A stretch of DNA of 64,000 nt from an uncultured Gemmatimonadaceae bacterium (GCA_963740355.1 CAVUDW010000002.1:2336001-2400000); one strand, 5' to 3'; shown: positions 8,146 through 36,842, numbered from the stretch's first letter. Notes: a model not told the origin generated them from the sequence alone. Program-made: numbers and translations.

Positions 8146-8185
8146 CGGCACCGCGGCATTCCGTCATGTTCCACTAGATTTCGGC

Positions 8186-20821: not shown

Positions 20822-20895
20822 GCCCTCGTAGCTCAGGTGGATAGAGCAGCAGTTTCCTAAACTGTTGGCCGGCGGTTCGAGTCCGCCCGAGGGCA
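20822..20895 (+). tRNA. tRNA-Arg (anticodon CCT)
   Basis: Acceptor stem GCCCTCG/CGAGGGC+A, D-loop TAGCTCAGGTGGATAGAGC, anticodon arm GCAGT-TTCCTAA-ACTGT, T-loop GGTTCGAGTCC; CCA not encoded. Confidence 0.96.
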
Positions 20896-20901
20896 TTTGC
20901 T
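20850..20901 (+). repeat. attL: 52-bp direct repeat (3' part of tRNA-Arg plus 6 nt)
   Basis: cagtttcctaaactgttggccggcggttcgagtccgcccgagggcatttgct, identical to 36791-36842. Confidence 0.97.
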
Positions 20902-20972: not shown

Positions 20973-21272
20973 TTACGCCAATCCCACCCGCACCGACCCA
21001 CCCGCAGCCGTCACGCGGAAGTAGGGCCAATCGACCCCGACCTTTGTGCGCGTATTGGCTGAGAAACTCTGATTCGCCGCGGTGTCCGTGGAGTCCGCCA
21101 CTGCGGCCGCGGAGTTCACTCGCGAGATCGTGGCCGTCGCGCCGGCGCTGGTGATGATGGTGATGGCGCCCACCCCGCGCAGATCGAGGACGATGCTCGT
21201 GCCGGCCGTGAGTGTGCGCGGTGAGTGTGCATAAGAGCGCTGTTCGATGGTGAAGTCTGCAGGGATCGTCAT
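20973..21272 (-). CDS. Small beta-strand-rich hypothetical protein (99 aa)
   Basis: ATGA-coupled to the terS stop; MTIPADF...VDWPYFRVTAAGGSVRVGLA. Confidence 0.65.
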   Translation of the reverse strand: MTIPADFTIEQRSYAHSPRTLTAGTSIVLDLRGVGAITIITSAGATATISRVNSAAAVADSTDTAANQSFSANTRTKVGVDWPYFRVTAAGGSVRVGLA

Positions 21273-21805
21273 GTGATGGGCTCCGGGTGGATGAGGGAGA
21301 GAACAGCATCGGGCACGCCGGAGACCACAGCATCGGGCACGCCGGAGACCACGGTGATGGGCTGACCGGCGCTGGTGACATCGAGGCTTGAGTGATTGCC
21401 GTACTTGCGTGGGGCGAGCGCCGCCACGTACCACCGTCTGGCATCGAATCGCAACCGAGAACGGGCGGCAAATTCGTGATTCGGACGCTCGACACCCTGG
21501 GCGTCCGTGAATCGGTCGCCGCTCGCGTCGTCAGCGATCGCCAACGCGTCTTCGGCGATGGCGTCGACCTGCATCTCTCGCACGCGCGCGTAGCGTTTCG
21601 CGTTCTCAGGGGATTGATCCCGCCACTCGTACACAGCCCGTGGGTTGACCGCCTCGGCCTTGCAGGCACGGCGCACCAGTTCTCCCAGCGCGACCCGCTC
21701 GAGGACGCGCTTCACGCGCGCGTCCGTGGTCTTGGCCAGCATTTTCGCCGGGGCCGAGATCGGGAGGTCAGCCACCATCGCCCGGGTGCTGCGTGCTGGC
21801 GTCAT
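21269..21805 (-). CDS. terS: Terminase small subunit-like protein (Sf6-type)
   Basis: HTH (LERVALGELVRRAC...AVYEW), Y.R.RE.Q.D..AE..L.IAD, RSRLRFDARRW...LAPRKYG; ATGA-coupled. Confidence 0.8.
   Translation of the reverse strand: MTPARSTRAMVADLPISAPAKMLAKTTDARVKRVLERVALGELVRRACKAEAVNPRAVYEWRDQSPENAKRYARVREMQVDAIAEDALAIADDASGDRFTDAQGVERPNHEFAARSRLRFDARRWYVAALAPRKYGNHSSLDVTSAGQPITVVSGVPDAVVSGVPDAVLSLIHPEPIT
21303..21352. repeat. 24-bp tandem duplication in the terS 3' end
   Basis: acagcatcgggcacgccggagacc x2, encoding VVSGVPDA twice. Confidence 0.9.
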
Positions 21806-22167
21806 TCTCGATCGCCCTCGTTCTCTCGCCGCATCCGAGCCACACGTTCGCGGCCCTTCAGCAAAATCTCCGTCAGCGTCTCTCCATTCGATGTGAGATC
21901 GATGGGTTGCGTCGGTTTGCCGTACCCGCGATCCGCGCAGAACGTGAGCGCTTTGACGAAGTGCGGATGATTGTGGTCCTTGAGGATCAGGCACAGCTCT
22001 CGGAGCGTCTCCTCGCTGCTGGCAAGTGATCGCATGTGCGCCACGAAGTCGTCGGTCGGGCGACCAGGTGAAACGCCGCGCCGCGGGTCCGGTCCCTTCG
22101 CGAACGGCTTCCCGCGCAATTTCTTCGGCGCGTTCGTGCCAGCGGTGATCGTGCTGGTGTCGAGCAT
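21802..22167 (-). CDS. DUF5681-like / second terminase-small-subunit-like protein (121 aa)
   Basis: N-terminal GKPFAKG.DPRR..PGRP and C-terminal DRGYGKPTQPIDLTSNGE, motifs seen in phage TerS-like proteins. Confidence 0.6.
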   Translation of the reverse strand: MLDTSTITAGTNAPKKLRGKPFAKGPDPRRGVSPGRPTDDFVAHMRSLASSEETLRELCLILKDHNHPHFVKALTFCADRGYGKPTQPIDLTSNGETLTEILLKGRERVARMRRENEGDRE

Positions 22168-22168
22168 G

Positions 22169-22453
22169 TCAGGCCTCATTCTCAAGGGAAAGGTCGGCGC
22201 GCAGCTGGGCGATCTCTGCGCGTCTGTCTTCGGCGTACTGCTCCGCAAACTCGATCTGTTGCCGCAGCTTCATCGTCCACATGACGCGCCCGAGGAAGAG
22301 GTCGCGCGTGGCGACCGGCGCCGCGCAGCGGTGGAGAGCGTTCCACCACGCGCGGAGTGCGCGGCGCTTCTGTGCCGTGTTCTCTTCGTGGACCGCGAGC
22401 TTGCGTTCGGCCCACGCGAGTTTGTCTGTGATCTCGAGGTGTGGTGTGGTCAT
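22169..22453 (-). CDS. Hypothetical helical protein (94 aa)
   Basis: Fills the gap between the giant gene and the terS-like genes on the same strand; AGAG upstream. Confidence 0.6.
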   Translation of the reverse strand: MTTPHLEITDKLAWAERKLAVHEENTAQKRRALRAWWNALHRCAAPVATRDLFLGRVMWTMKLRQQIEFAEQYAEDRRAEIAQLRADLSLENEA

Positions 22454-22464
22454 GTCTCTCAGCG

Positions 22465-25400
22465 TTAGCGGTGACGTGGTGGGCCAATCAGTGGCGCCAA
22501 GGGATTCGAGGTCGTGCCGTCGATCAGTGCCGTGATGCCCCGCACGGTGCGATCGAGCTGGGTGGCGGGATAGCCGAACAGCAGGCCCGCGGTTTCGTTT
22601 GCCGCACGGAGTGTTGCCGGCGTGACATCACCGCCGCGCGCGATACGGTCGGTCTGCGCTTTCAACTTCCCGATCGAGGCGAACACGCCGGCACCGGCCG
22701 GGCCATCGTAGTCGCCATACCCCTGCATCATCCCGCTCACTTCGCGCCCCAGCGGCACGAGGCTGAGGGCATACGCGGCAATCTCGGCGAGATACGAGGT
22801 CGCGACGTTGTCCGGTGGCTCATCACCACGCAGGGCATCCCGCAGCAGCTTGGTGAGCACTGACGGCAGCACGACGGTGAGCAGCACCACGTTCGTGATG
22901 GCGGCGACTTGTTCACCCCGTGTGCCGTCGCGCAGCGCCAGGCGACCAGACGAGGCGATCAGGTTGTATTGCGTGTTCATGTACGAGTACATCGCGGTCC
23001 AGAGTCGCGCCCAGCCTCGGAGACGCATGACCTGCGCCTGATCCTTGAGCATGCCGTTGCCCTGGCTATCGATCACGGCTTGATCGGCCACCAGCACGGC
23101 CTCGGCTTCTGGCGTGCCGGCGCTAATGGCCTTCTGATACGCGCCAATCCATGACGGCAGGTCGACCACGGTTTGCATCAGCGCGATGCCACGATACGCG
23201 TACTCGGCCAAGCCGCGGTCGAAGGCTTGCTTCGGCTCGATCTCGAAGGTCGCACGCAACGCCGTCATCGCGTCGCGCGACACCGTCGCTTGCCGTTCCC
23301 GCATGAACGCCGACTTCTCGAGGACCATGGCATTCGACTGATTCAGGCGCAGCAGGCTGCCGGTCGATGCCAGGAGACCGCGCGCCGTCCAGCCGTAGCC
23401 AATGCGCGCCGACGTCGAGAGGAAGCCAGTGGGCTGCATGAGCGCCGTCATCACGTTGAAGCCCATGCGCACCAGCGAGACTTTTCGGTTCAGCGTCTCC
23501 GCGATCGCATCCGTGGGGCCGGCAGGACGACCGTTGACCGTGACGTCCGTCAGCGCGCTTTTGATCTGCTCCCACAGTTCCGGTCCGACCGTGGCAATCG
23601 CGCGATCACCCACGTCCGGCGCGCGGAAGAGCACTGCGTTCAGGTCGCGAATGATCTCCTGATGCGTCAGGTCGTGGATCACCTCCCGCACATGCTCCCC
23701 GATCACCAACAGGTCGAGGCGCACCGCGTAGCTGGCCGACTGCACCCGCTCAATCCGACTGCCGTTCCGTGTGCTGCCGCGATGCGCGACGCCGCGCGCA
23801 AAATCCCGCTGCTGCGATTCCAGATCGATCGATTGAATCTGCGCGCTCTGCGTCGGATCGTACTTGAGCCGGTAGTACCCGCCGCGATACTGCGTCCCGC
23901 GCACGACGAACGGAATGGCCTCCACTTTCTCCGGCGCGATCCCATCGATGCGCTTGGCGAGGGCCTCGGTCGCGGGCCAGAACGAATCGAGATAGTCCCA
24001 GACGCCTTGCACCCAGCGCAGTTGGCTGTCCGTGAGGGACTCGCGGAGGCGCTGTTGCTCGCCGTCGCCAATCTGATTGCCATCCCGCAAGCGCTGCTGA
24101 TTCCCTTCGGTGCCCGTGTTGAGCACGACGGCCAAGCGCTGCCGGAGCGTGAGATGCACGACCACGCCAGTCGAGAGGCGCACGGGTGCCGTGGTGGCGA
24201 GCGCCTTGCGGTCCGCCGGCGTGAGCAATGCGTTCACACGCGCCAACGCAACAGCCGCTTCCCGGTTCTGTCGGGCTTCCTCGGTCCCCGCTTCATTGAG
24301 CGGGCGCAGCACATACTGCCACCAGTCGCCGGTCTCATTGCCGCCGCCAATCTGCCGGACGATAGAGGGCAGGGTGCGGAGCGTGGCGAAGCGTTCGCGG
24401 GCGGCCGTCGCGAATCGTGCACGCGACGACATGGCATCCCCACGATCGGGCGCGACCTGGCCGGTGCGATCGAGTTCGTCCATCAGCTTCGTGCGCAGTT
24501 CGTCCTGCGTGTGCTGCTTCGTCAGCGCGAGCGCCTTGCCTTCGCGCGCCGCACCGGTGCCGAGCATCAGCACCGCGTCGCGAAGATCCCGCGTCTGTTG
24601 CACCGTCAGGGACTGGAACGGGATCGCCGGCGTCTCGGTGCCGAGCCCCAACGCGGCGACGATCGGATCACCCTCGGCGGTCTTCTCCGTGATCCAGCGG
24701 GCCAGATCGGCGCGGGCCTCCCATTCGGTGCGCGTGCGCTGCTTCAGGTCGACGCGTTCGAGGAGGCCATCGATCTGCTCGAGCCACGGCTGCCCAATCT
24801 TGCCGATCTTCGCACGGACCGCCGGCTGCGTATACCGGAGCAACTCGCGGCGCGCGTCCCGCATTTCGTTCTGTGCGGCGATCGCTTCCGCATAGAAGAG
24901 ATGATTCAGGAGTTGCCGGCGCTTCGCCAGGTAGGCGCCCTGCTGGTTCCCGGCGACGAGTGCGGCTTCGACTTCGCGGGCGGCCTGTCGCTCGGCGACG
25001 AAGTAGCCATGTGGGCGAATCGTGGCGGCCGTCTGCTTGGCGATCGTGTCGCGGGCGAGTCGCTTGAGACTGGCGAAGGTGACGCCGTCCGCTCGGCTCG
25101 GCACATCCAGGCCACGCACATGGCCGAGCGCGGTGAGTTCTTCCACCAACACCCGCGCCAACCCGTCGTCTGCGGCATCGTGCGCGACAGAGCGAGCGGC
25201 CTGCGCCAGCGCGTTGCCATCGTGCAGGAGATCCCCGTAGTCGCGGGCCATGCTCGCACCCACCTGCTCCCGCACGAGGGCGTCGATCGGCGGCGCCGTC
25301 AGGAGCGCGGCGATCAGCTCGTCCTCCGTGGCAAAGCCGTACTCGATGGCGAAGAGCGTGGGGTCGATGCCGGTGTCGGTGGTCGTCAGCTTCCGTTGCG

Positions 25401-28400
25401 TCAACGTTTTGCGCGCCTCGGCGCCGAATTGCGCCTCGACCCAGGCGCGCGACAGCTTCTCGCCATCGCGCAGCGCAGCCTGTGCTTGATAGACCGGCTG
25501 GCCGAGCAGCTCCGCCCGCAGCGCGTCGGACCGTCGATCGAACTCCATCCGCCATTCGGCACGCGACGCCCGCAGCGTTTCGTTCCGCAGCTGCGCCTGC
25601 AGCTTCGCGGCGAAGGCTTCATATGCGACGGACGCCCGCTGCTGATAGGCCGCGAAGTCGTCCGCACTGCCGCCCACCTGCGCAGCATCCGTCAACTGAC
25701 CTGCGCGAACATCGGCCGCCGCAATCGCACTTTCGCCGGCCACCAAGCGATCGAACACGCCGCGGACTTCCTCACTGATCGGGATATTGAGGCCCGTCGC
25801 GCTGTGATACACGCTCACGATCCACGCACGGAAGCGACCGAACAGGGCCGCCAAGTCTGCCCGGGGCGCTGTGGCCGTCGCCCAATACGATTCGAAGGCG
25901 CGGGCGAACTGCTCGTGCTTGTCGCGCTGGTCTGGCCCAAGCGTCTCACCGGGCTGCAATCCCAGCCACTCGCGGATGGTCTGCGCGTCGGCCTTGAGTG
26001 CCTCGCTGGCGGTGTCCTTCGCCGCCGTCGTCAGCAGCATATCGACGAACAGGTGCGCCGACTCGTGGATGAACGTCGACGGGTTCTTGAGATTCAGGAG
26101 CCCGATTGTGACTTGGTAGCCATCGGGCGAAAACCGGATGTAGCCGTTCGGGTTCGCGTCGTCCTGATGGAACGTGGCGTGCTCGCCATCCACGGCCATG
26201 CCCATCTGAAAGAGCACGTTCCCGGCCGCATCAACCAGCTCGCCAGCGGCATTCAGCGAGGTCCCATCGTCCGCAACGTCCGGCAATGCGTCCGCCTCGA
26301 GGCCGGCGAGCGCGTCACCCTGATAGATGTCCTGGCTGGCGAGTCGATCGATCTCCGCTTGCACGGCCGCATCGGTGCGCACCCGGTCGGATTCGGCCGC
26401 CATGGCCTCACTGATCTGCGCTGGTGTCATCCCACGCGCTACGAGGGCCGCTTCGAGTCGGGCAATCCCTTTCTTCCGGGCCGCGACTCGCCCTTCCGCC
26501 CGCATCGAGCCTTCGGTGCCGACATACGACGAGCCACCGGCCGACAACTGCTGCTCGGAATCCACCGCACGGCCCACGATGTTCTCGGCGCCGTTCGCGC
26601 TGTACGCGGCCAGCAGCTCACGCACGAGCGCCGGTGTCTCCGTGCGAGCCAGCGAGGCATTCGAGCGGAGTGCCCCGGCCGGCGTGCGCGCGGAGGCGTA
26701 CACATCACCGCGGAGCATCGCCGCTGCCTGTCGGCCGCCAACGATCTGCACCACACGCTGCGAGGCGACGTCCGCCACCGACTGCGCGGAGCGATCGGCG
26801 AGTGACCGGTACACCAAGGCGTGCAGCTGCGCCAAGGGGGCAGCCTGATCCGCCTGGACACCCGCGGCCTGCAGTTGTGCCGACACGTTCTGCCGCACCG
26901 CCTCTTCACCCTCGGCCGGCTGTGGCAGTGCCGCCTGCATCTCCTCGAGGAGCCGAGACACTACCGCCGGATCCTGCAACTCGGCAGCCTTCGCCGCCGC
27001 TTCGCGTGCGCTCCAGTCATTGAGGTTTGTCTTCAGGTCTTGCGAGACCGCATCGTGGAACGGTGACGCGGCCAGCTTGGTCGCGTACACATCCATCGGG
27101 ATCGCGACGTAGCCGCCCAACTGCTGCGCCGTGAGGTATTGGCCGGCATCCCCGAGAATCGTTTGTGCCGCCTGTTCCGGTGCGACACCAGACGACTGGA
27201 AGAACGTCGCCCATGCTTCCGCAGGGACGTAGACGGTTGGTGCATCCGGCGCCGCCGCGCGCAGCAATTCCCCCACCGTGTCGGGCGCCTCGGTCAACGC
27301 TTTCGAGCGCCGCATCGTCTCGGACAGTGCGCTGAAATACTCAGCCGTTGCCGTGGCGCGTGCGGCGCGCACATGCTGGCCGGCGTAGTTCGCGAAAGCC
27401 GGTGGGAACCCGAGGACGAGCATCGCCTGGGCGGCCTGCGTGGCGGAGTCCAGCATATCCGCGCCGATGTCAGCAACGCTGTACGCCGATCCGTCAGGGT
27501 TCGCCACGTTGAGGGCGATGTTCGACAAGCCAGGCGCGATCGACTGCAGCGCTTCCGTGCTGGCCTCTTCTGCGATGGACGCCCCCATGCTCTTCGCAAA
27601 GCCGATGACGGCACCGCGTGCGGTGCGTTGTGTCACCGCACGCTCCACGGCCTGCGCTGCGGTGGTGCGGAGCATCGAGGGAATCAGCGACTGCGGCAGC
27701 AGGCTGCGCACGCCCGGCAGTGCATTCACGAGGAACACGTTGCCGACCGTCTCGAGCAACCCGTTCACGAGGCCGACGCCCCACGCCTGCGCACGCGCCG
27801 AGCGTTCGCTGATCGCATTGCCGGCCACCGTGGTGGAGCGCATCAGCCCATCCAGCGTCATCGCCCCTTCCGCCCGCATGGACGAGAGGAACCCGCCCGC
27901 CAGCGCGCCCGCCTGTGCGCCAGCTGCCGCACCGGCTGGCACGGTCACTTCTGCAAACGGGCCACCCGCCAAGCCCGCCGCCGCACCGAGTGTGCCGCCA
28001 ATCGCAGCCCCGGTGCCTGCGTCCAGAATACCGCGAATCATCGACGGGGCGGTGACGGTCGCATTGCGGACCACATTCGCACCGAATCGAGCCAGCGACG
28101 GCAACCCGGCGGTCGCTGCATCCACTGCGGCCGCCGTGGCGGTCGGATCCATCTGCTGCCGAGCCAAGGCATCCGACTGTGCATTGAGCAACGCGTTCTG
28201 TTCTGAGGTGGCACCCGACACCATCTGCTCGAAGCGCGCATCCACCACGTCAGTGTTCATCTTCCACGAGGCACCGAACGCCGTCACCGATCGCTGCAAC
28301 ATGCTTGGCGCGCGGATCGTCATCGGCGACTGCTTCAGCAACCACGACGCGGCGGCCATCGAGGGCAGATCATCCTGTACCTGCGCCGCCTTGATGGGAT

Positions 28401-28692
28401 TTGAAAGCCACACTGCGAGCGCGCTGTCCTGGCGGATCAACTCGGCGTGGCTGTCGGGTGCCATGAGCCGCGCCGGCGCCGATGCCGGATCGATCCCGTA
28501 GGCGCGGGCCACATTTGCGTTGGCGCGCGCGGTCGGCGCTGGCGTCTGCTTCGCGAGTTCGAGTGACGTGGTTGCGCGCTGCTGCTGCGCGGCATGCCAT
28601 CCGGCGACACGCTGCAGCTCGGCTGACACTTCGTCATCGACAGACAGGAGCGGACGACGAAGCGGGTTTGGGTCAATCCGAGGGCCGGTCAT
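22465..28692 (-). CDS. Giant (2075 aa) internal virion / DNA-ejection-like polyvalent protein with HExxH metallopeptidase-like module
   Basis: Gly/Ala zipper near the N-terminus; STFIHESAHLF...HEQFARAFESY...F.RFRAW...VY; C-terminal GGYY..YDP, GFN..TA..Q, D.P.W.GAY.KA, ADQAVIDSQG blocks recalling epsilon15/BPP-1-type podophage core proteins. Confidence 0.75.
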   Translation of the reverse strand: MTGPRIDPNPLRRPLLSVDDEVSAELQRVAGWHAAQQQRATTSLELAKQTPAPTARANANVARAYGIDPASAPARLMAPDSHAELIRQDSALAVWLSNPIKAAQVQDDLPSMAAASWLLKQSPMTIRAPSMLQRSVTAFGASWKMNTDVVDARFEQMVSGATSEQNALLNAQSDALARQQMDPTATAAAVDAATAGLPSLARFGANVVRNATVTAPSMIRGILDAGTGAAIGGTLGAAAGLAGGPFAEVTVPAGAAAGAQAGALAGGFLSSMRAEGAMTLDGLMRSTTVAGNAISERSARAQAWGVGLVNGLLETVGNVFLVNALPGVRSLLPQSLIPSMLRTTAAQAVERAVTQRTARGAVIGFAKSMGASIAEEASTEALQSIAPGLSNIALNVANPDGSAYSVADIGADMLDSATQAAQAMLVLGFPPAFANYAGQHVRAARATATAEYFSALSETMRRSKALTEAPDTVGELLRAAAPDAPTVYVPAEAWATFFQSSGVAPEQAAQTILGDAGQYLTAQQLGGYVAIPMDVYATKLAASPFHDAVSQDLKTNLNDWSAREAAAKAAELQDPAVVSRLLEEMQAALPQPAEGEEAVRQNVSAQLQAAGVQADQAAPLAQLHALVYRSLADRSAQSVADVASQRVVQIVGGRQAAAMLRGDVYASARTPAGALRSNASLARTETPALVRELLAAYSANGAENIVGRAVDSEQQLSAGGSSYVGTEGSMRAEGRVAARKKGIARLEAALVARGMTPAQISEAMAAESDRVRTDAAVQAEIDRLASQDIYQGDALAGLEADALPDVADDGTSLNAAGELVDAAGNVLFQMGMAVDGEHATFHQDDANPNGYIRFSPDGYQVTIGLLNLKNPSTFIHESAHLFVDMLLTTAAKDTASEALKADAQTIREWLGLQPGETLGPDQRDKHEQFARAFESYWATATAPRADLAALFGRFRAWIVSVYHSATGLNIPISEEVRGVFDRLVAGESAIAAADVRAGQLTDAAQVGGSADDFAAYQQRASVAYEAFAAKLQAQLRNETLRASRAEWRMEFDRRSDALRAELLGQPVYQAQAALRDGEKLSRAWVEAQFGAEARKTLTQRKLTTTDTGIDPTLFAIEYGFATEDELIAALLTAPPIDALVREQVGASMARDYGDLLHDGNALAQAARSVAHDAADDGLARVLVEELTALGHVRGLDVPSRADGVTFASLKRLARDTIAKQTAATIRPHGYFVAERQAAREVEAALVAGNQQGAYLAKRRQLLNHLFYAEAIAAQNEMRDARRELLRYTQPAVRAKIGKIGQPWLEQIDGLLERVDLKQRTRTEWEARADLARWITEKTAEGDPIVAALGLGTETPAIPFQSLTVQQTRDLRDAVLMLGTGAAREGKALALTKQHTQDELRTKLMDELDRTGQVAPDRGDAMSSRARFATAARERFATLRTLPSIVRQIGGGNETGDWWQYVLRPLNEAGTEEARQNREAAVALARVNALLTPADRKALATTAPVRLSTGVVVHLTLRQRLAVVLNTGTEGNQQRLRDGNQIGDGEQQRLRESLTDSQLRWVQGVWDYLDSFWPATEALAKRIDGIAPEKVEAIPFVVRGTQYRGGYYRLKYDPTQSAQIQSIDLESQQRDFARGVAHRGSTRNGSRIERVQSASYAVRLDLLVIGEHVREVIHDLTHQEIIRDLNAVLFRAPDVGDRAIATVGPELWEQIKSALTDVTVNGRPAGPTDAIAETLNRKVSLVRMGFNVMTALMQPTGFLSTSARIGYGWTARGLLASTGSLLRLNQSNAMVLEKSAFMRERQATVSRDAMTALRATFEIEPKQAFDRGLAEYAYRGIALMQTVVDLPSWIGAYQKAISAGTPEAEAVLVADQAVIDSQGNGMLKDQAQVMRLRGWARLWTAMYSYMNTQYNLIASSGRLALRDGTRGEQVAAITNVVLLTVVLPSVLTKLLRDALRGDEPPDNVATSYLAEIAAYALSLVPLGREVSGMMQGYGDYDGPAGAGVFASIGKLKAQTDRIARGGDVTPATLRAANETAGLLFGYPATQLDRTVRGITALIDGTTSNPLAPLIGPPRHR

Positions 28693-30443
28693 CGAACCAC
28701 CTGCTCAAGGAGCGCGCGTGCGCTCGCTGCGGTGAGTGTGTCAGGAATTAGCCCGCGCGCGCGCAGTGCGGCGTACCGCTCGACCATCGCGTCCGTGATG
28801 CGCGGTGCGGCAATGCCAGCAACCGCCGCCAGTGCTGGGATCGTCTGTTCGCGGAACGCGGTCGCGAGCCCCGGAGCGATGCGCGCGAGCGGCACACGAA
28901 AATCACTTCGGTCGTCCGGTGCGACATCAGCCGGGAGCGCGATCGTGTTGCTCGTGCCCCAGTCATCGCGCGTCAGCACGCGCATTTTGAGCGGCTGCAT
29001 CACGAGCGTGTCGTATTCATCCGGCGTCAGGTCGCGCCCCAAGTGCTGCGCCACGGCGGCCCGGCGCGTGTCCGCTTCACGCGCGAACCGCACGTACGTG
29101 GCATTGGCCATGATCTTCTCGGCGGGGTCACTTGCCTTCGTGATGCCGAGCTCCCGGGCGGTCACCTTCGTGAGATCGTCGAAGCCAATCACCGCACCAC
29201 TCTTCACGCGCTGCGCTGTGGTGGCATTCGGTTGCGCACCGCGCCACATCCCGAGCCACCGCTCGCCATCGGGCACGCTCATACGCTGGATGTATGCGAG
29301 CGCCTGATCACGTGGGATGCGCTGAAGGTCGTCTTCCCGCATCGAGAACGCCTGGCCGGCGTAACGGGGGTCAGTCGCCGGCGGACGGCCGGACGCGGCA
29401 TGAATCAGGTTGTCCGCCAACCCACGCGAGATGGCGAACGCCTGGTCACTCTTCGAGAGACCATCCCATCCGACGGCGATTGCCTGCTGTACGATGGTCT
29501 CGCCGCGGTGCGCGCGCGCGCGGTCAATCTCCTGCTCGCGCTCTGCCTCTTCCCGCCCATAGATGCCCAGCGCATGCTCGCGCACCTTGCCCGACGTGTT
29601 CGCCCGGATGAAGTCGCGCGCGGCCCGACCATTCACGCCGTGCTGCGCGACCGCGGTATCTGCAACCGTTTGTGCCCTCATCAGATCCGTCTGCTGGCCC
29701 AGCGCCTGCTCAAGCTGCACCGCGTCGTCCGGCGCAATTGCGCCCCTCTTCGCGCGGAACAGCTGGTCGGCGGCCGTGACCTGATCCGATGCGAGGAGGC
29801 GCTGCACCGCGCCGGCGTAGAGCGAGGACACGGCCTTGTCTCGATTGGCGGCGACAACTTCCGGCGCATGCCCCTGCAGTGTGCCCAGCCGCTCCACGCC
29901 GACCATCACATCCGCCTCTGCCTTCCCGAGGGCCTGGACGTTGTTCGGATCCACCATGCCACGCGTGATGGCTGAGGTAATCGCGGTCTTTGCGACATCC
30001 AAGTCATAGACCGCACGTTCGCGCAACTCGTGACGCTGCAGCGAACCGTTCAGGGAATCGCGAAGCGCCGCCAAGCGCGGCTGCACCAACTGCCGTTGAT
30101 ACGCGGTCAAGTCTTTCGTTGACGCGCCGGCCTCGCGATCGAACACGGACAGGATGGCGTCACTCACACCGATGGCGTTCTTCCCCTGCTTGGCAAACGC
30201 GCCGCGTTCGGGATCGCTTAGCGCCTCCGTAATGAACGACGACAGGCGTGATTCAACCGCCGTAACCCGTGTCTCATCCGCCTTCCGCCGTTCCTGGACG
30301 ACGAGTGCTGCGAGATCGCCACCGGCCTGCTGCAGTGCCCCGCCTAACTGCCCGAAGGGATTCGGGTTTACGCTGTCGCGTTGCGGAGCGCTCAGTGGCC
30401 GAAGACCCGTCGAGATGGTGGGGACAACTGGGACATGAGGCAT
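28689..30443 (-). CDS. Putative internal virion / ejection protein (584 aa)
   Basis: MPHVPVVPT... N-terminus, L.DPE.G....GKNAIG motif, long helical body; lies directly upstream of the giant protein as in podophage ejection operons. Confidence 0.65.
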   Translation of the reverse strand: MPHVPVVPTISTGLRPLSAPQRDSVNPNPFGQLGGALQQAGGDLAALVVQERRKADETRVTAVESRLSSFITEALSDPERGAFAKQGKNAIGVSDAILSVFDREAGASTKDLTAYQRQLVQPRLAALRDSLNGSLQRHELRERAVYDLDVAKTAITSAITRGMVDPNNVQALGKAEADVMVGVERLGTLQGHAPEVVAANRDKAVSSLYAGAVQRLLASDQVTAADQLFRAKRGAIAPDDAVQLEQALGQQTDLMRAQTVADTAVAQHGVNGRAARDFIRANTSGKVREHALGIYGREEAEREQEIDRARAHRGETIVQQAIAVGWDGLSKSDQAFAISRGLADNLIHAASGRPPATDPRYAGQAFSMREDDLQRIPRDQALAYIQRMSVPDGERWLGMWRGAQPNATTAQRVKSGAVIGFDDLTKVTARELGITKASDPAEKIMANATYVRFAREADTRRAAVAQHLGRDLTPDEYDTLVMQPLKMRVLTRDDWGTSNTIALPADVAPDDRSDFRVPLARIAPGLATAFREQTIPALAAVAGIAAPRITDAMVERYAALRARGLIPDTLTAASARALLEQVVR

Positions 30444-31114
30444 CAGGCCGCCTTCTCGTGGCCGCGCATCTCACCGAGAATCCGGGCGAGTTCGGCGCTG
30501 CTCGCACGCAGTGGGGCGCCGAGGTCGAACGACGGGTTCACGATCGCTGGCCCGCCATACGTGTGGACGTGGACGCCTTCGCGCATCAACGCGACGCTCA
30601 CGAGCGTGACCATGTCCAGCGTCGGGAGCGCGGCCGCGGATCCGGGGTGCAGGGCGATCAGATGGTGCCGCGCTGTGTGTTGCGCGCGATCGACCGCCTT
30701 GTACGCGACGCCAAGCGCCACGATTGCCGCTTCGAGATCTGGCACGCCATCGCTGGAACGCGCGATCGCGTCGGCAGCGGCCGCGATCTGGGTGTCACGT
30801 TCGGCGCGGAGGACGCTCGCGTGCGCATCCTCGACGGCAAAGCGCGCACGCGACTGCCCCTGCGCCGCGGCATCCAGCGATGCCCGGGCGTTGGCGAGGG
30901 CCGTCGTCTCGATCTTGCTGTCCTCGGCATCGCCGGCAATCACAAGATCTTCCGCGCGACCGGCGCGATTCTCGGCATGTGAGACTTCATCCTGCGCGAG
31001 GCGGACACGTGCGTCGGCTCGTTCGGCCTGTGCCTGCGCATCGGTCAACGCCTGGCGGGCCTTGCTGAGGGCGCGGGTGGCAGTTGCAACGCCGTCGGTC
31101 GTGGTCTTGGTCAT
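30443..31114 (-). CDS. Ala-rich coiled-coil protein (223 aa)
   Basis: GGAG RBS, heptad-like helical N-terminal half, TGATG coupling to the next gene. Confidence 0.7.
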   Translation of the reverse strand: MTKTTTDGVATATRALSKARQALTDAQAQAERADARVRLAQDEVSHAENRAGRAEDLVIAGDAEDSKIETTALANARASLDAAAQGQSRARFAVEDAHASVLRAERDTQIAAAADAIARSSDGVPDLEAAIVALGVAYKAVDRAQHTARHHLIALHPGSAAALPTLDMVTLVSVALMREGVHVHTYGGPAIVNPSFDLGAPLRASSAELARILGEMRGHEKAA

Positions 31115-31200
31115 TAGAGGCTCCAGCTGGGGTAAGAGTCGCGGGCGGAATGCCAGCGGGGTGCAGCAGTTTTTGCGGCAGATTCGTGCGAACTGGGTGG

Positions 31201-31656
31201 TTAGGCAGCGGTCGAGAGGACGGCGACCGTTTCGATCACGGAAGCGCAATCGAGGACATCGAACAGGGCGAGAAGCTCGGCCTGCGGACGGAGAAGGCCT
31301 CCGTCGACCTCACGGACTCCGGCGCGTTCTTCGAACCGCTCGCGCTCGTCGATCGTGAGAAGACACAGCTGCAGGTGCGCAAAGCCGGCGGCGGTCCCGG
31401 CGATGGAGTGCACGTCGGTGGATGCCTGCTGGAACCGCGTCGCCCCGCATTCCATGTGGCGCGCGATCTCCCGGCGGACCTGTGGCTGGCGCAGGTAGAT
31501 GCGCAGCTCGTGCGTCAGGACGTCCGGGGGTTGGATGGCGATTCTCGGTGACCCGTCGGGCACGAGGGCCGCCACGCGCACCGTGGCGCGATGCAGGACC
31601 AGGTGCGCGAGCACACGACGGGCACACTCGAGCGTGCCGACAAGCTGGACGCTCAT
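31201..31656 (-). CDS. Hypothetical phage/satellite protein (151 aa)
   Basis: GAGGAGG RBS; ERFEERAGVREVDGGL..QAE motif seen in replication-module-associated phage proteins. Confidence 0.65.
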   Translation of the reverse strand: MSVQLVGTLECARRVLAHLVLHRATVRVAALVPDGSPRIAIQPPDVLTHELRIYLRQPQVRREIARHMECGATRFQQASTDVHSIAGTAAGFAHLQLCLLTIDERERFEERAGVREVDGGLLRPQAELLALFDVLDCASVIETVAVLSTAA

Positions 31657-31695
31657 TCGAATGCCTCCTCGAGCTGCAGCGTGGCAGCTGCTGGG

Positions 31696-31891
31696 CAGGA
31701 CGATAGGACAATCAGGACATGATTTAGAGCCCTCCGCATTACACGAACCAGCGAACCGCTCATGTACCGATACTTTGTGAATAATTGTCCTGATTGTCCT
31801 GTTGATTGGCTGCGCACTTGCTTTCGTGTTGTTGCATAAGCTTTTGCGGCGCAGGACAATCCGCAGGACAAAGACAGGCCGGCAAGACAAT
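31696..31891. other. Putative satellite replication origin (iterons)
   Basis: About 8 copies of a CAGGACAAT-like 9-mer in both orientations, including a perfect 15-bp inverted pair (31705-31719 / 31786-31800), in AT-richer non-coding DNA just downstream of the helicase. Confidence 0.7.
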
Positions 31892-33433
31892 TCATGTGAA
31901 ATGCTCGCTGCTGGTGCCCGACGCGTAGGGCTTCAGCTTCAATCCAGTCCGGTACTTCTGGCCGCCACGCTTTTCGCCGCCGATGCCGCGGTCCGTCAGT
32001 TTCCGGCCGAACACGTTGTTTGACACCGGCGTATCACCGCGATGCTCGCACCAGTGTTTGTAGGCCGTGTACAGGTTTCCGGCCAGCACTTGCGCTGCCG
32101 GGTCGCGGGTGCAGCGTTCGTCGATGAACTCAGCCATGACGTCGGATTCCTCGCGATAATTCTCCGTCGCGTCCTTCACGGCCTTCGGGAACGGCAACCC
32201 GGTCCGGTACCACTGGATCGCGCCAGACACCGCCCACGCGAGGACGCCGGGCAGTTCGGCCCGCAGCACTTCGTCCAGATTCTTCTCGTCTTCCTCGTCA
32301 GGGATCTGCACGTTGAACGGCACCAGCCGCATCCGGCGCCACAGGCCATCGCCCCCGCCGTGAACTACAGGCCGATGGTTCACCGCCATCCAGAGCGTGA
32401 GCTCCGGCGGAAACTCGATCTCCTTGCTGAACAAGTGCCGCGCCGTGATCGTGTCGCCGCCTGTGATCGCTTTCACGAGCGCTTCGTTCAGTCGCTTGCC
32501 TTCACCGGCTTCGGCTGTTGTCACGATGCGCGTGCGGTAGAACCGCGCGATGTCTCCGCGTGCGCCACCGACGGTGCCAGGTCGATCAAGAAAGGTTTCG
32601 AAGTCGGCGTGCACGGCATACTCGCCCCCCAGCCATCGCATCATCTTGATGAACAGGGACTTCCCGTTCCGGCCTGTACCGAGAAGCATGATCAGGCATT
32701 GCTCCAGCGTGTGACCCGTGAGGCTGTAGCCGGCCGCGATCCGCAAGAAGTCACGCACGTCATTGTCGGGTGCGACGCGGGCAAGAAAGGACATCCACCG
32801 GTCACACCGTGCCTGAGGTTCGTAAGGCACACTGACAAGCTTCGTGTAGTGATCGCCTCGGTCATGCTTCTTCAGCACGCCAGTACGCAGGTCAATCGTC
32901 CCGTTCAGAACATTGAGCACGTCGGGGTTTGAGTCCCAGTCTGCCGGGTTTCGTACGATCGCTGGATTGAAACGCGCAATCTTCAGTATCTGCTCAATCC
33001 CACCCGCCGACTCGCACTTGTCGGCCCACCTGAGCAGGGCTTGACGCTGGCCTTTGTCTTCAGCCGCCTCACCGGCGGTGCGAACTTCTCGAATCGTTGA
33101 TTGAGCGCGTTGCGAGGCCACAACCCCGCCATCGTCGAGTGCGAATCGGCGGCCGTCCCACACCCGCCACCCGCCAGAGGCGGCATCGTGTCGCACATCG
33201 TGCTTGTGATCATCAACAAAGCGATCCGCGTTGCCGAAGTTCGTAAGCGGGTACTGATGCCCTTCGCTAGCCAGCTCGTGTGAAAGTTTGTGACCTTCCG
33301 TGCAGCGATCCTCCCCCGTCTCTTCGGTGACGAACCCTGGGCAGCCGAGCGTAGGGCAGCACGCCGTATCGACGCCCTGCTCGAGCCGGAGCCGTGCGGC
33401 ACGGCTGTCTGGAAGGCGACGAGCAGCGGTCAT
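31892..33433 (-). CDS. P4-alpha/D5-family SF3 helicase (primase-helicase C-terminal type) with N-terminal Cys/His cluster
   Basis: D5_N (LTNFGNADRF, W.VWDG), LNV.NGTIDLRTG, Walker A GTGRNGKS, KAITGGDTITARHL, NHRP, WRR..LVPF. Confidence 0.9.
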   Translation of the reverse strand: MTAARRLPDSRAARLRLEQGVDTACCPTLGCPGFVTEETGEDRCTEGHKLSHELASEGHQYPLTNFGNADRFVDDHKHDVRHDAASGGWRVWDGRRFALDDGGVVASQRAQSTIREVRTAGEAAEDKGQRQALLRWADKCESAGGIEQILKIARFNPAIVRNPADWDSNPDVLNVLNGTIDLRTGVLKKHDRGDHYTKLVSVPYEPQARCDRWMSFLARVAPDNDVRDFLRIAAGYSLTGHTLEQCLIMLLGTGRNGKSLFIKMMRWLGGEYAVHADFETFLDRPGTVGGARGDIARFYRTRIVTTAEAGEGKRLNEALVKAITGGDTITARHLFSKEIEFPPELTLWMAVNHRPVVHGGGDGLWRRMRLVPFNVQIPDEEDEKNLDEVLRAELPGVLAWAVSGAIQWYRTGLPFPKAVKDATENYREESDVMAEFIDERCTRDPAAQVLAGNLYTAYKHWCEHRGDTPVSNNVFGRKLTDRGIGGEKRGGQKYRTGLKLKPYASGTSSEHFT

Positions 33434-33594
33434 CCGCGGCTCCGAACACGCAAGGCGGCGGAGGTGACAAGACGATCGATCTCGTCGATTTGCACGGGCG
33501 CGTCGTCCGCAAACGACCACTCGGTCAGGATGCGAACCACCGTCACCTTCGGGTTGCCCTTCGCCGGCTCTGCTGCCGGCTTCTCGGTGCTCAT
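33430..33594 (-). CDS. Small hypothetical protein (54 aa)
   Basis: MSTEKPAAEPAKGNPKVTVVRILTEW...; ATGA overlaps at both ends. Confidence 0.5.
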   Translation of the reverse strand: MSTEKPAAEPAKGNPKVTVVRILTEWSFADDAPVQIDEIDRLVTSAALRVRSRG

Positions 33595-33791
33595 GCGGAC
33601 CGCCGCGCTGGCTGTTCGTCGCGAAGAGCGGCGGCGTCCATGAACAGCTTGCCGAGTGCCCGGATTTCGTGCGCGGGCATCGGGTCAAGCCCGGACACGA
33701 TTGCCACGATTTCAGGGAAGAGCCAGCGATAGAAGGCCGTGCCGTTGCCTGGCACCCTTGCACGTCGCGGGCGGATATGTACACTTTTCAT
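33591..33791 (-). CDS. Small hypothetical protein (66 aa)
   Basis: MKSVHIRPRR...; stop overlaps the next start. Confidence 0.45.
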   Translation of the reverse strand: MKSVHIRPRRARVPGNGTAFYRWLFPEIVAIVSGLDPMPAHEIRALGKLFMDAAALRDEQPARRSA

Positions 33792-33859
33792 CTCAAGCCT
33801 CGACTTTCGAAACGCGTCCCGCCTGGCCGGCATATGGGGCGCGTTTCGCGTTGGTGGGG

Positions 33860-34129
33860 TCAGGCAGCGGTGAGTGCGACGTCGCGTGCGCTGGTACTGC
33901 GGAATCGCGGACGACTCGCGAGCCAGGCGTCGAGATCGGCAACGCGATAGCCGAGGGCCTTGGTGGAAATTTGTACGAACTCGGGGCCACTCCCTTCGCC
34001 GCGCATTCGCGCCAGCGTCGGGACCGACAGGCCGCAGTACTGCGCGGCGTGATTGGGGCGCAGCACTGGTACCGAGACCGAAGCCGGCATGGCTGTCGGC
34101 GCTCGCTTCTGCCGTTTGTCGTGAGTCAT
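33860..34129 (-). CDS. AlpA / excisionase-like winged HTH regulator
   Basis: LRPNHAAQYCGLSVPTLARMR..GSGPEFVQI..KALGYRVADLDAWL; GGAG RBS. Confidence 0.88.
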   Translation of the reverse strand: MTHDKRQKRAPTAMPASVSVPVLRPNHAAQYCGLSVPTLARMRGEGSGPEFVQISTKALGYRVADLDAWLASRPRFRSTSARDVALTAA

Positions 34130-34614
34130 CGCGTTCTCCGTGTATGCGGTGGCGGGAATGTCAGTGAGCGTCAGGTCGTGTCACTCGACTCAACACAAGC
34201 AGCAGCCCACTCCGCCGCCTATGGCAGGTGTAGTGCTAGTTCACTAGTCATCATCTGGGCTCTACTCGTATCACTGCACGTCGTGCGTTGACAGAAAGAA
34301 CGCCCCGCATTGGTGCCGGATGTAGCCGAAGTGAAGCCGCGCTACACTAGTCGAACAGCTTGTACTCCGTCTGCGCCCAGTGGTGTGACGGGTATGCAGA
34401 ACTCCCGAGCGAATGCAGGGCGCACTCGTCGGGAGTTCTCTCGTGCGTCATTCCGCGCCCGTATGGGCGCGGACTCACGACGTCAGCCGTCCGATCGCAC
34501 TCGGCGGCGTCGGTCTCACCATGCGCCAAGTGTTGCCACGGCGCTCGAGCACGACGATCGCGCGGCCGAGGATCCACGCGATGTAGCGCGTCGGGTGAGC
34601 GTGTGGGCCGCGGG

Positions 34615-34836
34615 TCATTCGGCACACTCCCGCAGGAGCTTCGGCGACGCCGGCACGAGCATGACGCGGAGCCCTTCAAGCGTTGGCGACAGCACCTCGC
34701 CGTCGATCACGCCGACCGTGTTGCCATTCAGGGCCGTGCGGATGACCTCCGCCTCGTACTCCTGCAGCTCCCACGGGTGCGCGGCGCGAATCGGCACCCA
34801 GCTGCAGTAGTTCATGACGATCATGCCGCGGCTCAT
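34615..34836 (-). CDS. Small hypothetical protein (73 aa)
   Basis: MSRGMIVMNYCSW...; ATGA-coupled to the upstream ORF. Confidence 0.45.
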   Translation of the reverse strand: MSRGMIVMNYCSWVPIRAAHPWELQEYEAEVIRTALNGNTVGVIDGEVLSPTLEGLRVMLVPASPKLLRECAE

Positions 34837-35234
34837 TGTGCTGTCTCCGGCAGGGCCGGCAACGCAGCTGCCGCAGCATTCAACGCAGCGACGAAGCGTC
34901 GAAAGCTCTCTGGCGTCAGCGACCCCAAGTAGCCGTCGTCTCCTCCGCAGATCGTGTAGTGACGCTGGGGGGTGGTGGCATTGTTGTCGCCGATCGTGAG
35001 TTTCACGTCCACCCACAGGCGCACGTCGGGTCCTGTGCCCTCGCCAGACTGTGCCGCGGTCAGCGTCCACAGCATGTACTCGTCCTTCGGCAGATCAGCG
35101 AAGGCCTCGACGGTGTGCGACGCGATCACGGTTTTCGGGGCGTCTGCGCTCGAGGGGACGAACGGCGCGCTGGCCGGCGACAGTGCCAGCGTCGGACGGG
35201 TGGCGCGCTGGGCCTTCAGGGGCGTATTCTTCAC
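34833..35234 (-). CDS. Hypothetical protein (133 aa)
   Basis: GAGAGG RBS, GTG start, immediately downstream of the integrase. Confidence 0.55.
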   Translation of the reverse strand: MKNTPLKAQRATRPTLALSPASAPFVPSSADAPKTVIASHTVEAFADLPKDEYMLWTLTAAQSGEGTGPDVRLWVDVKLTIGDNNATTPQRHYTICGGDDGYLGSLTPESFRRFVAALNAAAAALPALPETAQ

Positions 35235-35352
35235 GGTAAGCCTCTCCCCTCACGGGGAAGGTTCGCCGGTCCGTGTCCCCCTCTTCCGCCAAGTTGACGA
35301 GGGATGCGGGCCGGTCTTCGTTTCGGGAGTGCCGCTCCCGATCGGCGTGGGA

Positions 35353-36615
35353 TCAGCCCACGAGTTTGAGTGTCTCGGCGGGTCGTGCCAGGCGCTTCGC
35401 CCGATCCGCTCCCACCGTGTCTGCCGCGGCTTTCATGGGGTCGTCCACCGTGTGCACGTACAGGCTGCTGGTCGCGATGTTGGTGTGACCAAGCAGGGAC
35501 TTGACCGCCGCAGCGGGATAGCGCGCACCGATGTCTGACGCCATGTCGTGCCGGAAGCCGTGCAGCGTGAAGCCGGTGAGCTTCGCCGCATCCCGGATCT
35601 CGCGCCACTGTCGATCGATGTGCCGAACAGGCACGGTCGGATCATCGAAATGGGGCAGCACATACACGTCACTGTGCTTCTCGGCGCGGATCGTCTCGAG
35701 CACGGCGAGGGCCTCCGCGCTGATGTGGCGCTGATCTTCGGCCCGGTCGCTCAGCTTCATGCCTTTGCTGTCGAGGAAGGTCAATCGCTGGCGTTCCCGG
35801 TCGACTTCCACCCAGCGAAGATTGAGGATTTCCGACTTGCGACACCCGGTCAGGAACAGCAGGCGCAGCGCCGCCGGCACTTGCCAGGGCACGCCGTTCG
35901 CCTCGGCCGCGCGCATCGCATCCCCCAAGGCGGACACCTGTGCGTCGGTGAGCGGCACCACACGACGGCGAGGCTTCGGGTAGCGCTTCACGAACTGCGC
36001 GGCCGCAGGGTTCACCGTGATGTGCAACTGTCGGATGGCGAAGGCGAAGAACGCCGACATCGCAACGATCGCGTGGTTGGCCTCGCTCGGCGTCTCGTGG
36101 AGGTCCGTGTGCAGCGCCTGCATGTCGGCCGGCGTCACCAGCGTGATCGGCTCGGTGCCAAAGTTCGGAATCAGGTGGACCGTCAGCAGGCGGTCCACCT
36201 CCCGCACGTGCTGCGGGTCGCAATCCTTTCGTAGTTCCGCCAGGTACGTCGTAACGAGCTCGCTCACCGTTGGCACCGCCGCCCGCTTCTTCTTGTCGTC
36301 CTGCGGACGCTCGCCCTTGCTGAGCCGACCACGTGCCGACGTCGCCAGGGCTGCGGCCTCTGTGATGGTGATGTCACCATACGTGCCGAGCGTGAGCCGC
36401 CGGTATTTCGCCTTTCCGCTCGCGCCACGCGCCGCTGACTTGCCACCGATCGCATCGCGGAAGCGCAGCGCGAAGACTTTCACGCCGCTCGGGTACACGC
36501 GGACATGGAACCCCTTTGGCGCCTCGAAATACGCGTCATACGCCACCCCAGAGGGCTTCAGCGCATCAACGCTGGTCTTCCGGGCAGGGATTTTCGCCGG
36601 CGGTTTGCGAGGCAT
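35353..36615 (-). CDS. int: Tyrosine recombinase / integrase with N-terminal arm-binding domain
   Basis: GFHVRVYPSGVKVF...RRLTLG.YG (arm domain), LTGCRKSEILNLRW, LHGFRH, LLGHTNIATSSLYVH catalytic motifs. Confidence 0.96.
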   Translation of the reverse strand: MPRKPPAKIPARKTSVDALKPSGVAYDAYFEAPKGFHVRVYPSGVKVFALRFRDAIGGKSAARGASGKAKYRRLTLGTYGDITITEAAALATSARGRLSKGERPQDDKKKRAAVPTVSELVTTYLAELRKDCDPQHVREVDRLLTVHLIPNFGTEPITLVTPADMQALHTDLHETPSEANHAIVAMSAFFAFAIRQLHITVNPAAAQFVKRYPKPRRRVVPLTDAQVSALGDAMRAAEANGVPWQVPAALRLLFLTGCRKSEILNLRWVEVDRERQRLTFLDSKGMKLSDRAEDQRHISAEALAVLETIRAEKHSDVYVLPHFDDPTVPVRHIDRQWREIRDAAKLTGFTLHGFRHDMASDIGARYPAAAVKSLLGHTNIATSSLYVHTVDDPMKAAADTVGADRAKRLARPAETLKLVG

Positions 36616-36790
36616 GGTGCGCGGGTTCGCGTGAGGGTTCCAGCAGGGTTCCTCGGAACCCCACAACACGATAACGCCTGACAACACTTGATGTCAACAG
36701 CGAACGCGAACCCGCGAAGAATGCCTGTAGAATATGCGTGTTTTTGATATCATCAGATATCAGCACATGCCGTTGCAATGCCGTCGCCAA

Positions 36791-36842
36791 CAGTTTCCTA
36801 AACTGTTGGCCGGCGGTTCGAGTCCGCCCGAGGGCATTTGCT
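36791..36842 (+). repeat. attR: 52-bp direct repeat (tRNA-Arg 3' fragment)
   Basis: Identical to 20850-20901; lacks the tRNA 5' half. Confidence 0.97.

Follow-up and report, generated by a model that had tools for sequence, protein, structure and literature searches.

Known phage satellites steal capsids, tails and packaging enzymes. The SaPI/PICI, P4-like, cfPICI, PLE and PICMI satellites have a backbone of integrase, AlpA-type excisionase and primase genes, integrate at tRNA genes and lack a full set of virion genes. SaPIs and P4 are about one-third the size of the helper genome. Here we describe a 15.9-kb island that shares this backbone, the integration at a tRNA gene and the lack of a full virion gene set, and that has a similar size relative to its presumed helper. 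It lies in a 64,000-nucleotide (nt) stretch of DNA (called the window here) from an uncultured Gemmatimonadaceae bacterium (GCA_963740355.1 CAVUDW010000002.1:2336001-2400000). Two properties set it apart from the known satellites: its presumed helpers are BPP-1/epsilon15-like podophages, and 39% of the island is one gene. This gene encodes a protein of 2075 amino acids (aa), called P0001 or the giant here. A literature search returned no report of satellites encoding ejection or internal virion proteins, and the words ‘ejection’, ‘injection’ and ‘internal virion’ are absent from the main text of a satellite census (de Sousa 2023, PMC10085698). Judged by sequence and gene context, the island and its relatives are probably phage satellites that supply their own injected giant protein. 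Earlier publications already describe the protein family with its HExxH module; the island context is the new part.

In BPP-1, the genes run in the order bbp14, bbp13 (tail), bbp12 (internal virion protein), bbp11 (SLT ‘endolysin’), bbp10 (giant) and bbp9 (fibre). Bbp10 is annotated as a ‘crystallin beta/gamma motif-containing protein’ of 2052 aa and is similar in length to P0001. The two proteins have the HExxH module and the C-terminal region in common, and the N-terminal 830 aa of P0001 have diverged beyond the reach of tblastn. The 584-aa gene and the giant gene of the island stand in the same order as bbp11 and bbp10, with the same 4-nt overlap between the stop of the upstream open reading frame (ORF) and the ATG of the giant. 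The differences lie in the surroundings. P0001 is carried by a 15.9-kb island without capsid, portal, terminase, tail-tube and fibre genes, not by a 40–48 kb phage, and the 584-aa partner has no SLT domain, unlike Bbp11.

Table 2 of Hardies 2016 gives Bbp10 as a homologue of T7 gp16 (IVP-D, where IVP stands for internal virion protein) in the epsilon15 subgroup. That published link needed joined intermediate hidden Markov models. T7 gp16 and the Bbp10 family are both large and helical, are encoded after the tail-tube and small internal virion protein genes and are expected to be ejected. Direct similarity between T7 gp16 and the giant family was not detected (hhalign with the family profile, probability 0.6%). 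T7 gp16 carries its own transglycosylase, and in the island of the window neither the giant nor its 584-aa partner has this domain. From the gene position and the literature we infer that the giant would be located in the virion and ejected.

The identification of P0001 as a Bbp10-family protein is firm. A search of PHROGs gave one very strong match, phrog_9880 (annotated as function unknown; E 1e-258, residues 832–2062). In a tblastn search against 50,697 phage records, 47 were matched, and the 30 listed are records of 39–48 kb. Bbp10 of BPP-1 matched residues 834–2070 with 30% identity (E 5e-97), and the other matches include phages of Pseudomonas (AF, HU1, UFJF_PfDIW6), Caulobacter (Jess A, RapA), Xanthomonas (CP2), Vibrio and Cobetia (Carin1). 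The original prediction, made from this DNA alone, had placed the protein in an epsilon15/BPP-1 giant family. The BPP-1 part of this claim stands on the two matches above; the epsilon15 part (gp17) has its sole link in the cited Table 2, and no epsilon15 record was among the 30 matches listed. All strong matches were phage virion-cassette proteins. Best matches to conjugation or toxin families, which would have spoken against the prediction, did not occur.

A large protein database yielded 105 homologues of P0001, mostly on contigs of 40–47 kb. Two of the close relatives, P0002 and P0003, are 54–55% identical and lie on contigs of 17.2 and 14.5 kb. Single-protein scans of genome and metagenome collections returned no close relative of P0001, and with a three-sequence profile a single metagenome locus was detected (L176, an ordinary phage). 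Among 80 viral contigs with a giant, 64 are normal phages with the giant in a podophage structural cassette. No terminal repeats were found in the nine short whole viral contigs that we checked. Searches of PDB sequences with P0001 and with a 32-sequence family profile gave nothing meaningful.

The island is bounded by two 55-nt direct repeats (Table 1), whose spacing gives an element length of 15,941 nt, and is flanked by housekeeping genes. In same-genus loci, tRNA-Arg(CCT) lies 20–856 nt from the right-flank gene in 6/9 cases, so the island is an insertion; in the other three, no tRNA lies within the flank. The element has its own integrase, excision and replication genes and lacks a full virion gene set, as a satellite does. 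Pfam and PHROG scans of its ORFs revealed no capsid, portal, terminase, tail or lysis genes. Of a podophage structural cassette, only the Bbp11-like gene precedes the giant. Homologues of Bbp12, Bbp13, Bbp14, Bbp16 and Bbp9 were found neither in the island nor in the genome (94.5% complete). This genome has no second copy of the giant, no gp14 homologue and no detected cognate (BPP-1-like) phage. In phages, a structural lysozyme is encoded ahead of the giant, and its non-catalytic part is matched by the N-terminal half of the 584-aa protein. With the 584-aa protein as query, tblastn matched the same position in prophages and in L176. The protein has no Pfam match.

DNA runs from two studies gave short contigs only. 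One of them matches the window at 100% identity. The metagenome of the second study contains short contigs that are approximately 90–96% identical to parts of the island (giant, 584-aa gene and integrase; window 23752–35866), so a related island exists in another population.

The layout recurs in other genomes. A profile scan with one genome per species gave 163 relatives, and 80 loci were kept. In 49 of the 80, a tail-tubular B gene lies upstream of the giant, and these are ordinary prophages. Ten loci have the island layout (L021, L034, L036, L040, L041, L049, L051, L056, L057 and L070): an integrase and/or replication gene, then the giant, with no tail-tube gene. The other 21 are short, truncated or ambiguous. 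In 9/10 island loci, host genes begin within a few kilobases downstream of the giant; L057 ends inside the giant at a contig end. In seven of the ten, a tRNA gene lies just beyond the giant and faces it, as in the window. L040 has 48-nt repeats 15,951 nt apart, and the islands with both ends in view measure approximately 14.5–16 kb (estimated from coordinates and exact only for L040). The giant is intact in 9/10 islands, that is, in all whose ends lie in the locus. The original prediction had hinted at a satellite, and the tRNA-integrated element without core virion genes, together with these ten similar loci, supports the hint.

The replication genes of the islands are of five kinds: D5 or PrimPol-D5, AEP/AAA_25, RepB-DUF5906, IstB/DnaC-like and an O-like initiator. 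Major capsid, portal and terminase families were absent from Pfam scans of the ORFs of the ten islands, with one exception. L051 has a weak Terminase_6N match (E 2e-6) approximately 8 kb downstream of the giant and separated from it by host-type genes; this match may belong to another element. A Bbp13 query matched none of the ten island genomes and nothing in the genome of the window; all five control prophage genomes were matched. DUF5681 genes are present in related islands. Neither BPP-1 nor two prophage genomes yielded one, so their role is not tied to packaging by this comparison.

The related islands also carry genes of virion type. A Bbp11-like gene without SLT is present in L034, L036, L040, L041 and L051, a phrog_418 internal virion protein in L034 and L070, a Bbp16 cement-like gene in L021, L041, L049 and L057, a protease-like gene in L041 and a tail fibre in L021. 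Proteins at the Bbp11 position fall into two size classes: approximately 700–800 aa, mostly with SLT, and approximately 530–640 aa, without a muralytic domain. Among 50 proteins encoded just upstream of giants, 24 have SLT and one has Peptidase_M15 instead. All six island Bbp11-like proteins belong to the shorter, SLT-less class. The giants of the islands are also shorter, with a median length of 1929 aa versus 2210 aa in prophages (Mann–Whitney p = 6e-5, for rows that are not independent). A FastTree phylogeny built from the C-terminal region scatters the island giants among those of prophages, with one island-only clade (L049, L036, L056).

Further observations concern single loci. L021, from an isolate genome, has a gene for a 695-aa tail fibre or spike just before the giant (6485–8572, plus strand). 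Its N-terminal 130 aa resemble a phage tail-fibre adaptor domain, a further weak match is pectate-lyase-like, and the neighbouring gene (6048–6488) is Bbp16 cement-like. L021 would thus be a satellite-like element that encodes a receptor-binding protein of its own. In L041 and L021, a protease-like (phrog_458) gene is directly followed by a Bbp16 cement-like gene (L041:5170–5787 and 5798–6262; L021:5373–6038 and 6048–6488), with no major capsid gene between or adjoining them. These pairs are candidate capsid-remodelling genes. L037 and L052 are two different BPP-1-like prophages on one isolate contig, approximately 145 kb apart, each with its own giant gene.

Table 1. Features of the island and of the giant gene, in window coordinates (residue numbers refer to P0001).
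Feature	Position	Strand	Basis or remark
tRNA-Arg(CCT)	20822-20895	+	
Left 55-nt direct repeat	20847-20901	+	3' part of tRNA
153-aa ORF downstream of giant	20973-21434	-	no family found
148-aa ORF downstream of giant	21802-22248	-	no family found
Giant gene P0001, 2075 aa	22465..28692	-	Bbp10/phrog_9880-family polyvalent protein, predicted internal-virion (ejection-type)
Conserved C-terminal region common with Bbp10, residues 1001-2075	22468..25692	-	phrog_9880 and Bbp10 matches
Hydrophobic helix 2, residues 1963-1981	22750-22806	-	Kyte-Doolittle 1.43
Hydrophobic helix 1, residues 1929-1947	22852-22908	-	Kyte-Doolittle 2.13
HExxH (MPTase / CLCA_X-type) module, residues 845-1000	25693..26160	-	conservation, AlphaFold2 (AF2) model, literature
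Short variable linker, residues ~650-840	26173..26745	-	cargo slot in relatives (ART, PBECR, Zeta, RadC, MuF_C, others)
Gly/Ala-rich ‘zipper’, residues 221-266	27895..28032	-	G+A count versus shuffles
Divergent LPD22-like N-terminal domain, residues ~40-135	28288..28575	-	colinear alignment with homologues whose residues 45-134 are Pfam LPD22
584-aa protein, N-terminal half Bbp11-type ‘structural lysozyme’-like	28689..30443	-	phrog_10475 E 1e-27, phrog_1044 E 2e-23
268-aa ORF, coiled-coil-like N-terminus	30443..31249	-	probable start M46 (nt 31114)
229-aa ORF	31201..31890	-	
D5-type primase-helicase	31892..33784	-	D5_N, DUF5906, Pox_D5
HTH_17 / excisionase (AlpA-like) protein	33860..34129	-	
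166-aa ORF, candidate regulator	34310..34810	+	sole plus-strand gene of the island; no family found
133-aa ORF	34833..35234	-	weak DUF6907 match, E 6e-4, below cut-off
Tyrosine integrase with Arm-DNA-binding domain	35353..36687	-	
Right 55-nt repeat	36788..36842	+	54/55 identical

The small-ORF region next to the left attachment site (attL) contains a 24-nt tandem direct repeat of two copies (92% identical, window 21296–21343).

The giant ORF comprises 2075 uninterrupted codons on the minus strand. The GC content at its third codon positions (GC3) is 0.80, compared with 0.65–0.68 for overall GC in the region. It is likely a working gene for a Bbp10-type giant internal-virion protein. Antisense to it runs an open frame of 1210 codons (window 23173–26805, plus strand), which was passed over by GC3-based gene picking. 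Long shadow frames are common in high-GC coding DNA.

A Pfam scan of P0001 found no family, even at E ≤ 1, with polyvalent MPTase, LPD and peptidase models included. The domains were traced through the relatives. A Pfam scan of 15 of the 105 homologues showed that 12 begin with LPD22. Residues 35–650 of P0001 align colinearly with the N-termini of these LPD22-bearing relatives. Between LPD22 and the C-terminal region, the relatives carry variable domains: ART-PolyVal, PBECR3/5, Zeta_toxin, RadC, MuF_C, LPD3/23/37 and ddrB-ParB. The relatives are thus phage-type polyvalent proteins in the sense in which Iyer 2017 (PMC5512222) describes such proteins, and the polyvalent relationship suggested for P0001 at the outset is borne out by them. 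Compared with the polyvalent proteins described there, P0001 is without a recognisable cargo enzyme. No domain was recognised in its linker (residues ~650–840). Large polyvalent proteins combine several unrelated domains, effector or enzymatic, in one chain; the domain content of P0001 is the HExxH module and the divergent LPD22-like head only. As read from sequence, the family architecture begins with an LPD22-like head, followed by an N-module that is helical and rich in Gly/Ala and by a slot for variable cargo; the HExxH module comes next, and approximately 1100 aa of conserved C-terminal sequence with a predicted hydrophobic helix complete the protein. P0001 appears as a ‘chassis only’ member of this family, with a cargo slot that is nearly empty.

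The Gly/Ala zipper of the original prediction was recovered as an enriched stretch at residues 221–266. Gly and Ala account for 29 of its 46 residues, a count reached by none of 2000 composition-preserving shuffles. The 23-residue uncharged run inside it is unremarkable and was matched in 244 of the 2000. Good alignment of the long zipper is limited to 9 of 32 family members, and P0001 and its nearest relative P0002 show it most strongly. In the C-terminal region, helix 1929–1947 is hydrophobic in all 32 aligned homologues (mean Kyte–Doolittle value 1.14). The third Kyte–Doolittle peak of P0001 is at residues 304–322 (1.33).

The HExxH motif is found as HESAH at residues 876–880 (nt 26053–26067), exactly where the original prediction had put it, and is followed by HEQFARAFESY at residues 926–936 (nt 25885–25917). 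Across 101 homologues, H876, E877 and H880 are each kept in 100, H926 in 97, E927 in 101, E934 in 98 and Y936 in 100. Neither motif is a chance occurrence, since both are near-invariant. The CLCA_X family of zincins has the consensus HExxHxxxD, and residues 700–1000 of Bbp10 are among its seeds (Lenart 2013, PMC3650047). The sequence HESAHLFVD of P0001, with D884 as the last residue, fits this consensus.

AlphaFold models of the module, made with 68 and 115 aligned sequences, had predicted local distance difference test (pLDDT) values of 78.5 and 78.8. The model consists of a β-hairpin followed by five helices. HExxH is in the first helix (29–48), and HE...E.Y is in the third (81–97). The HExxH motif thus lies on a modelled helix and has conserved acidic residues downstream as candidate third ligand; D884 is another such candidate. 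A long helix dominated the first AF2 model (261 aa), so coiled coils were all that fold searches with it returned. With a trimmed model of 158 aa, Foldseek gave no match at E ≤ 0.001, and the best hits of a VIA search were unrelated helical proteins (Z 6.3). At noise level were the catalytic centre of anthrax lethal factor (Z 3.6) and a putative metal-dependent hydrolase (Z 4.2). The assignment as zincin-like is thus a prediction from the motif, its conservation and the literature, not from a fold or a metal site. Look-alikes of the module in the ESM Atlas are fragments of polyvalent proteins and serve as leads only.

Three other explanations of the island were weighed. It could be the remnant of a decayed BPP-1-like prophage, with the giant as an unbroken relic that has no present role. 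The giant, the 584-aa gene and the integrase are indeed ordinary parts of BPP-1-like prophages, prophage and island giants intermingle in the tree, and neither a helper nor a packaging gene was found for the island of the window. Decay would, however, require two separate deletions each time, one of the Bbp13/14 genes two to three positions upstream and one of the tail-fibre gene immediately downstream. Ten further loci, with five different replication modules, show this outcome as well, and the sizes converge where both ends are seen. The 6.2-kb giant ORF is intact with coding-type GC3, the integrase and repeats are intact, and so are all island giants whose ends lie in the locus. Some islands also have cement-like or protease-like genes but not the capsid gene that stands beside these in phages. 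We regard decay as unlikely. Slightly less likely again is an interference or defence element, in which the giant and the 584-aa protein would be dominant-negative look-alikes that poison head or ejectosome assembly and are not needed for delivery of island DNA. Satellites commonly interfere with their helpers. The shorter island giants without cargo domains, the lack of SLT in all six island Bbp11-like proteins (against 24 of the 50 scanned) and the absence of a cognate phage from the island genomes in the Bbp13 query are what this explanation would lead one to expect. The cut-down form is not specific to islands, though, because SLT-less Bbp11-like proteins and short giants are also found in complete phages such as L176. 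PADLOC found no match to known defence families, and neither the catalytic HExxH residues nor any part of the C-terminal region has been lost, as expected of a working virion protein.

Transfer by conjugation is the third explanation, and we consider it very improbable. Here the island would be an integrative mobilisable element, and the giant an effector transferred with the DNA, like polyvalent proteins of the ArdC/TraC1 type. Polyvalent proteins with MPTase domains are described in both conjugative elements and phages (Iyer 2017), and such elements, too, carry integrase and primase genes. Against this, the Pfam and PHROG scans of the island found no relaxase, coupling protein, type IV secretion system or oriT-type gene. 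The giant sits in podophage structural cassettes in the 49 genome loci and 64 viral contigs given above, and the partner genes in related islands encode virion proteins.

A number of points weigh against the reading of the islands as satellites. Neither a helper phage nor an excised circle nor a particle is known for the island of the window or its relatives, and the two DNA runs, which consist of short contigs, gave no bridging piece and no excision joint. No terminase small subunit, capsid-size factor or pac/cos site was recognised in the island of the window. Pfam, PHROG and PADLOC assign no family to its ORFs of 268 and 229 aa, which are not Bbp12- or gp14-like either. The upstream end is outside the examined locus for 5/10 islands, and several island genomes are metagenome-assembled genomes, whose incompleteness weakens the result that no tail gene is present. 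That the islands always keep the giant is true by construction, because the loci were found through it. The mixing of island and prophage giants in the tree (8 changes for 10 rows, as low in 41 of 500 shuffles) fits repeated prophage decay too. For the protein itself, the giant's zincin fold, its Zn site, its insertion into the membrane and its location in the virion are predictions, and the fold searches with the module models gave noise-level matches only. The hydrophobic segments proposed for the C-terminus were found as two helices, and the second of these (1963–1981) is not hydrophobic across the family (mean Kyte–Doolittle value −0.15, 29% charged, 32/32 rows filled). It is therefore a trait of P0001, not of the family.

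If the islands are satellites, the cycle may run as follows. Upon infection by a helper, the island would excise and replicate. Its DNA, about one-third of a helper genome of 42–45 kb, would be packed into helper-made heads together with the island giant and its 584-aa partner. At the next infection, these two proteins would be ejected ahead of the DNA. The C-terminal region of the giant would help to build a conduit across the envelope, and the HExxH domain may be a Zn peptidase with the giant or a target as substrate.

A wider form of the satellite reading is put forward only tentatively. The islands may be undescribed, widespread satellites of BPP-1/epsilon15-like podophages, approximately 14.5–16 kb in size, integrating at tRNA genes and occurring in several phyla. 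They would remodel the interior of the helper virion with their own stripped-down giant, often along with Bbp11-like, gp14-like, cement-like or tail-fibre genes, such that satellite proteins are injected instead of the cargo-laden polyvalent protein of the helper. Giant genes would have been exchanged repeatedly with local helpers, which would not be resident prophages.

If the islands do bring their own injected proteins, the ejectosome would be a new target of molecular piracy, and the islands would hold natural ‘minimal’ versions of a giant virion protein. Comparing the giants of islands (chassis only) with those of helpers (chassis plus toxin-like or enzyme cargo) would separate the parts used for delivery from those used in conflict. 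There is also a lesson for annotation: an island with integrase, AlpA and primase genes and one huge ORF should not by default be called a ‘defective prophage’.

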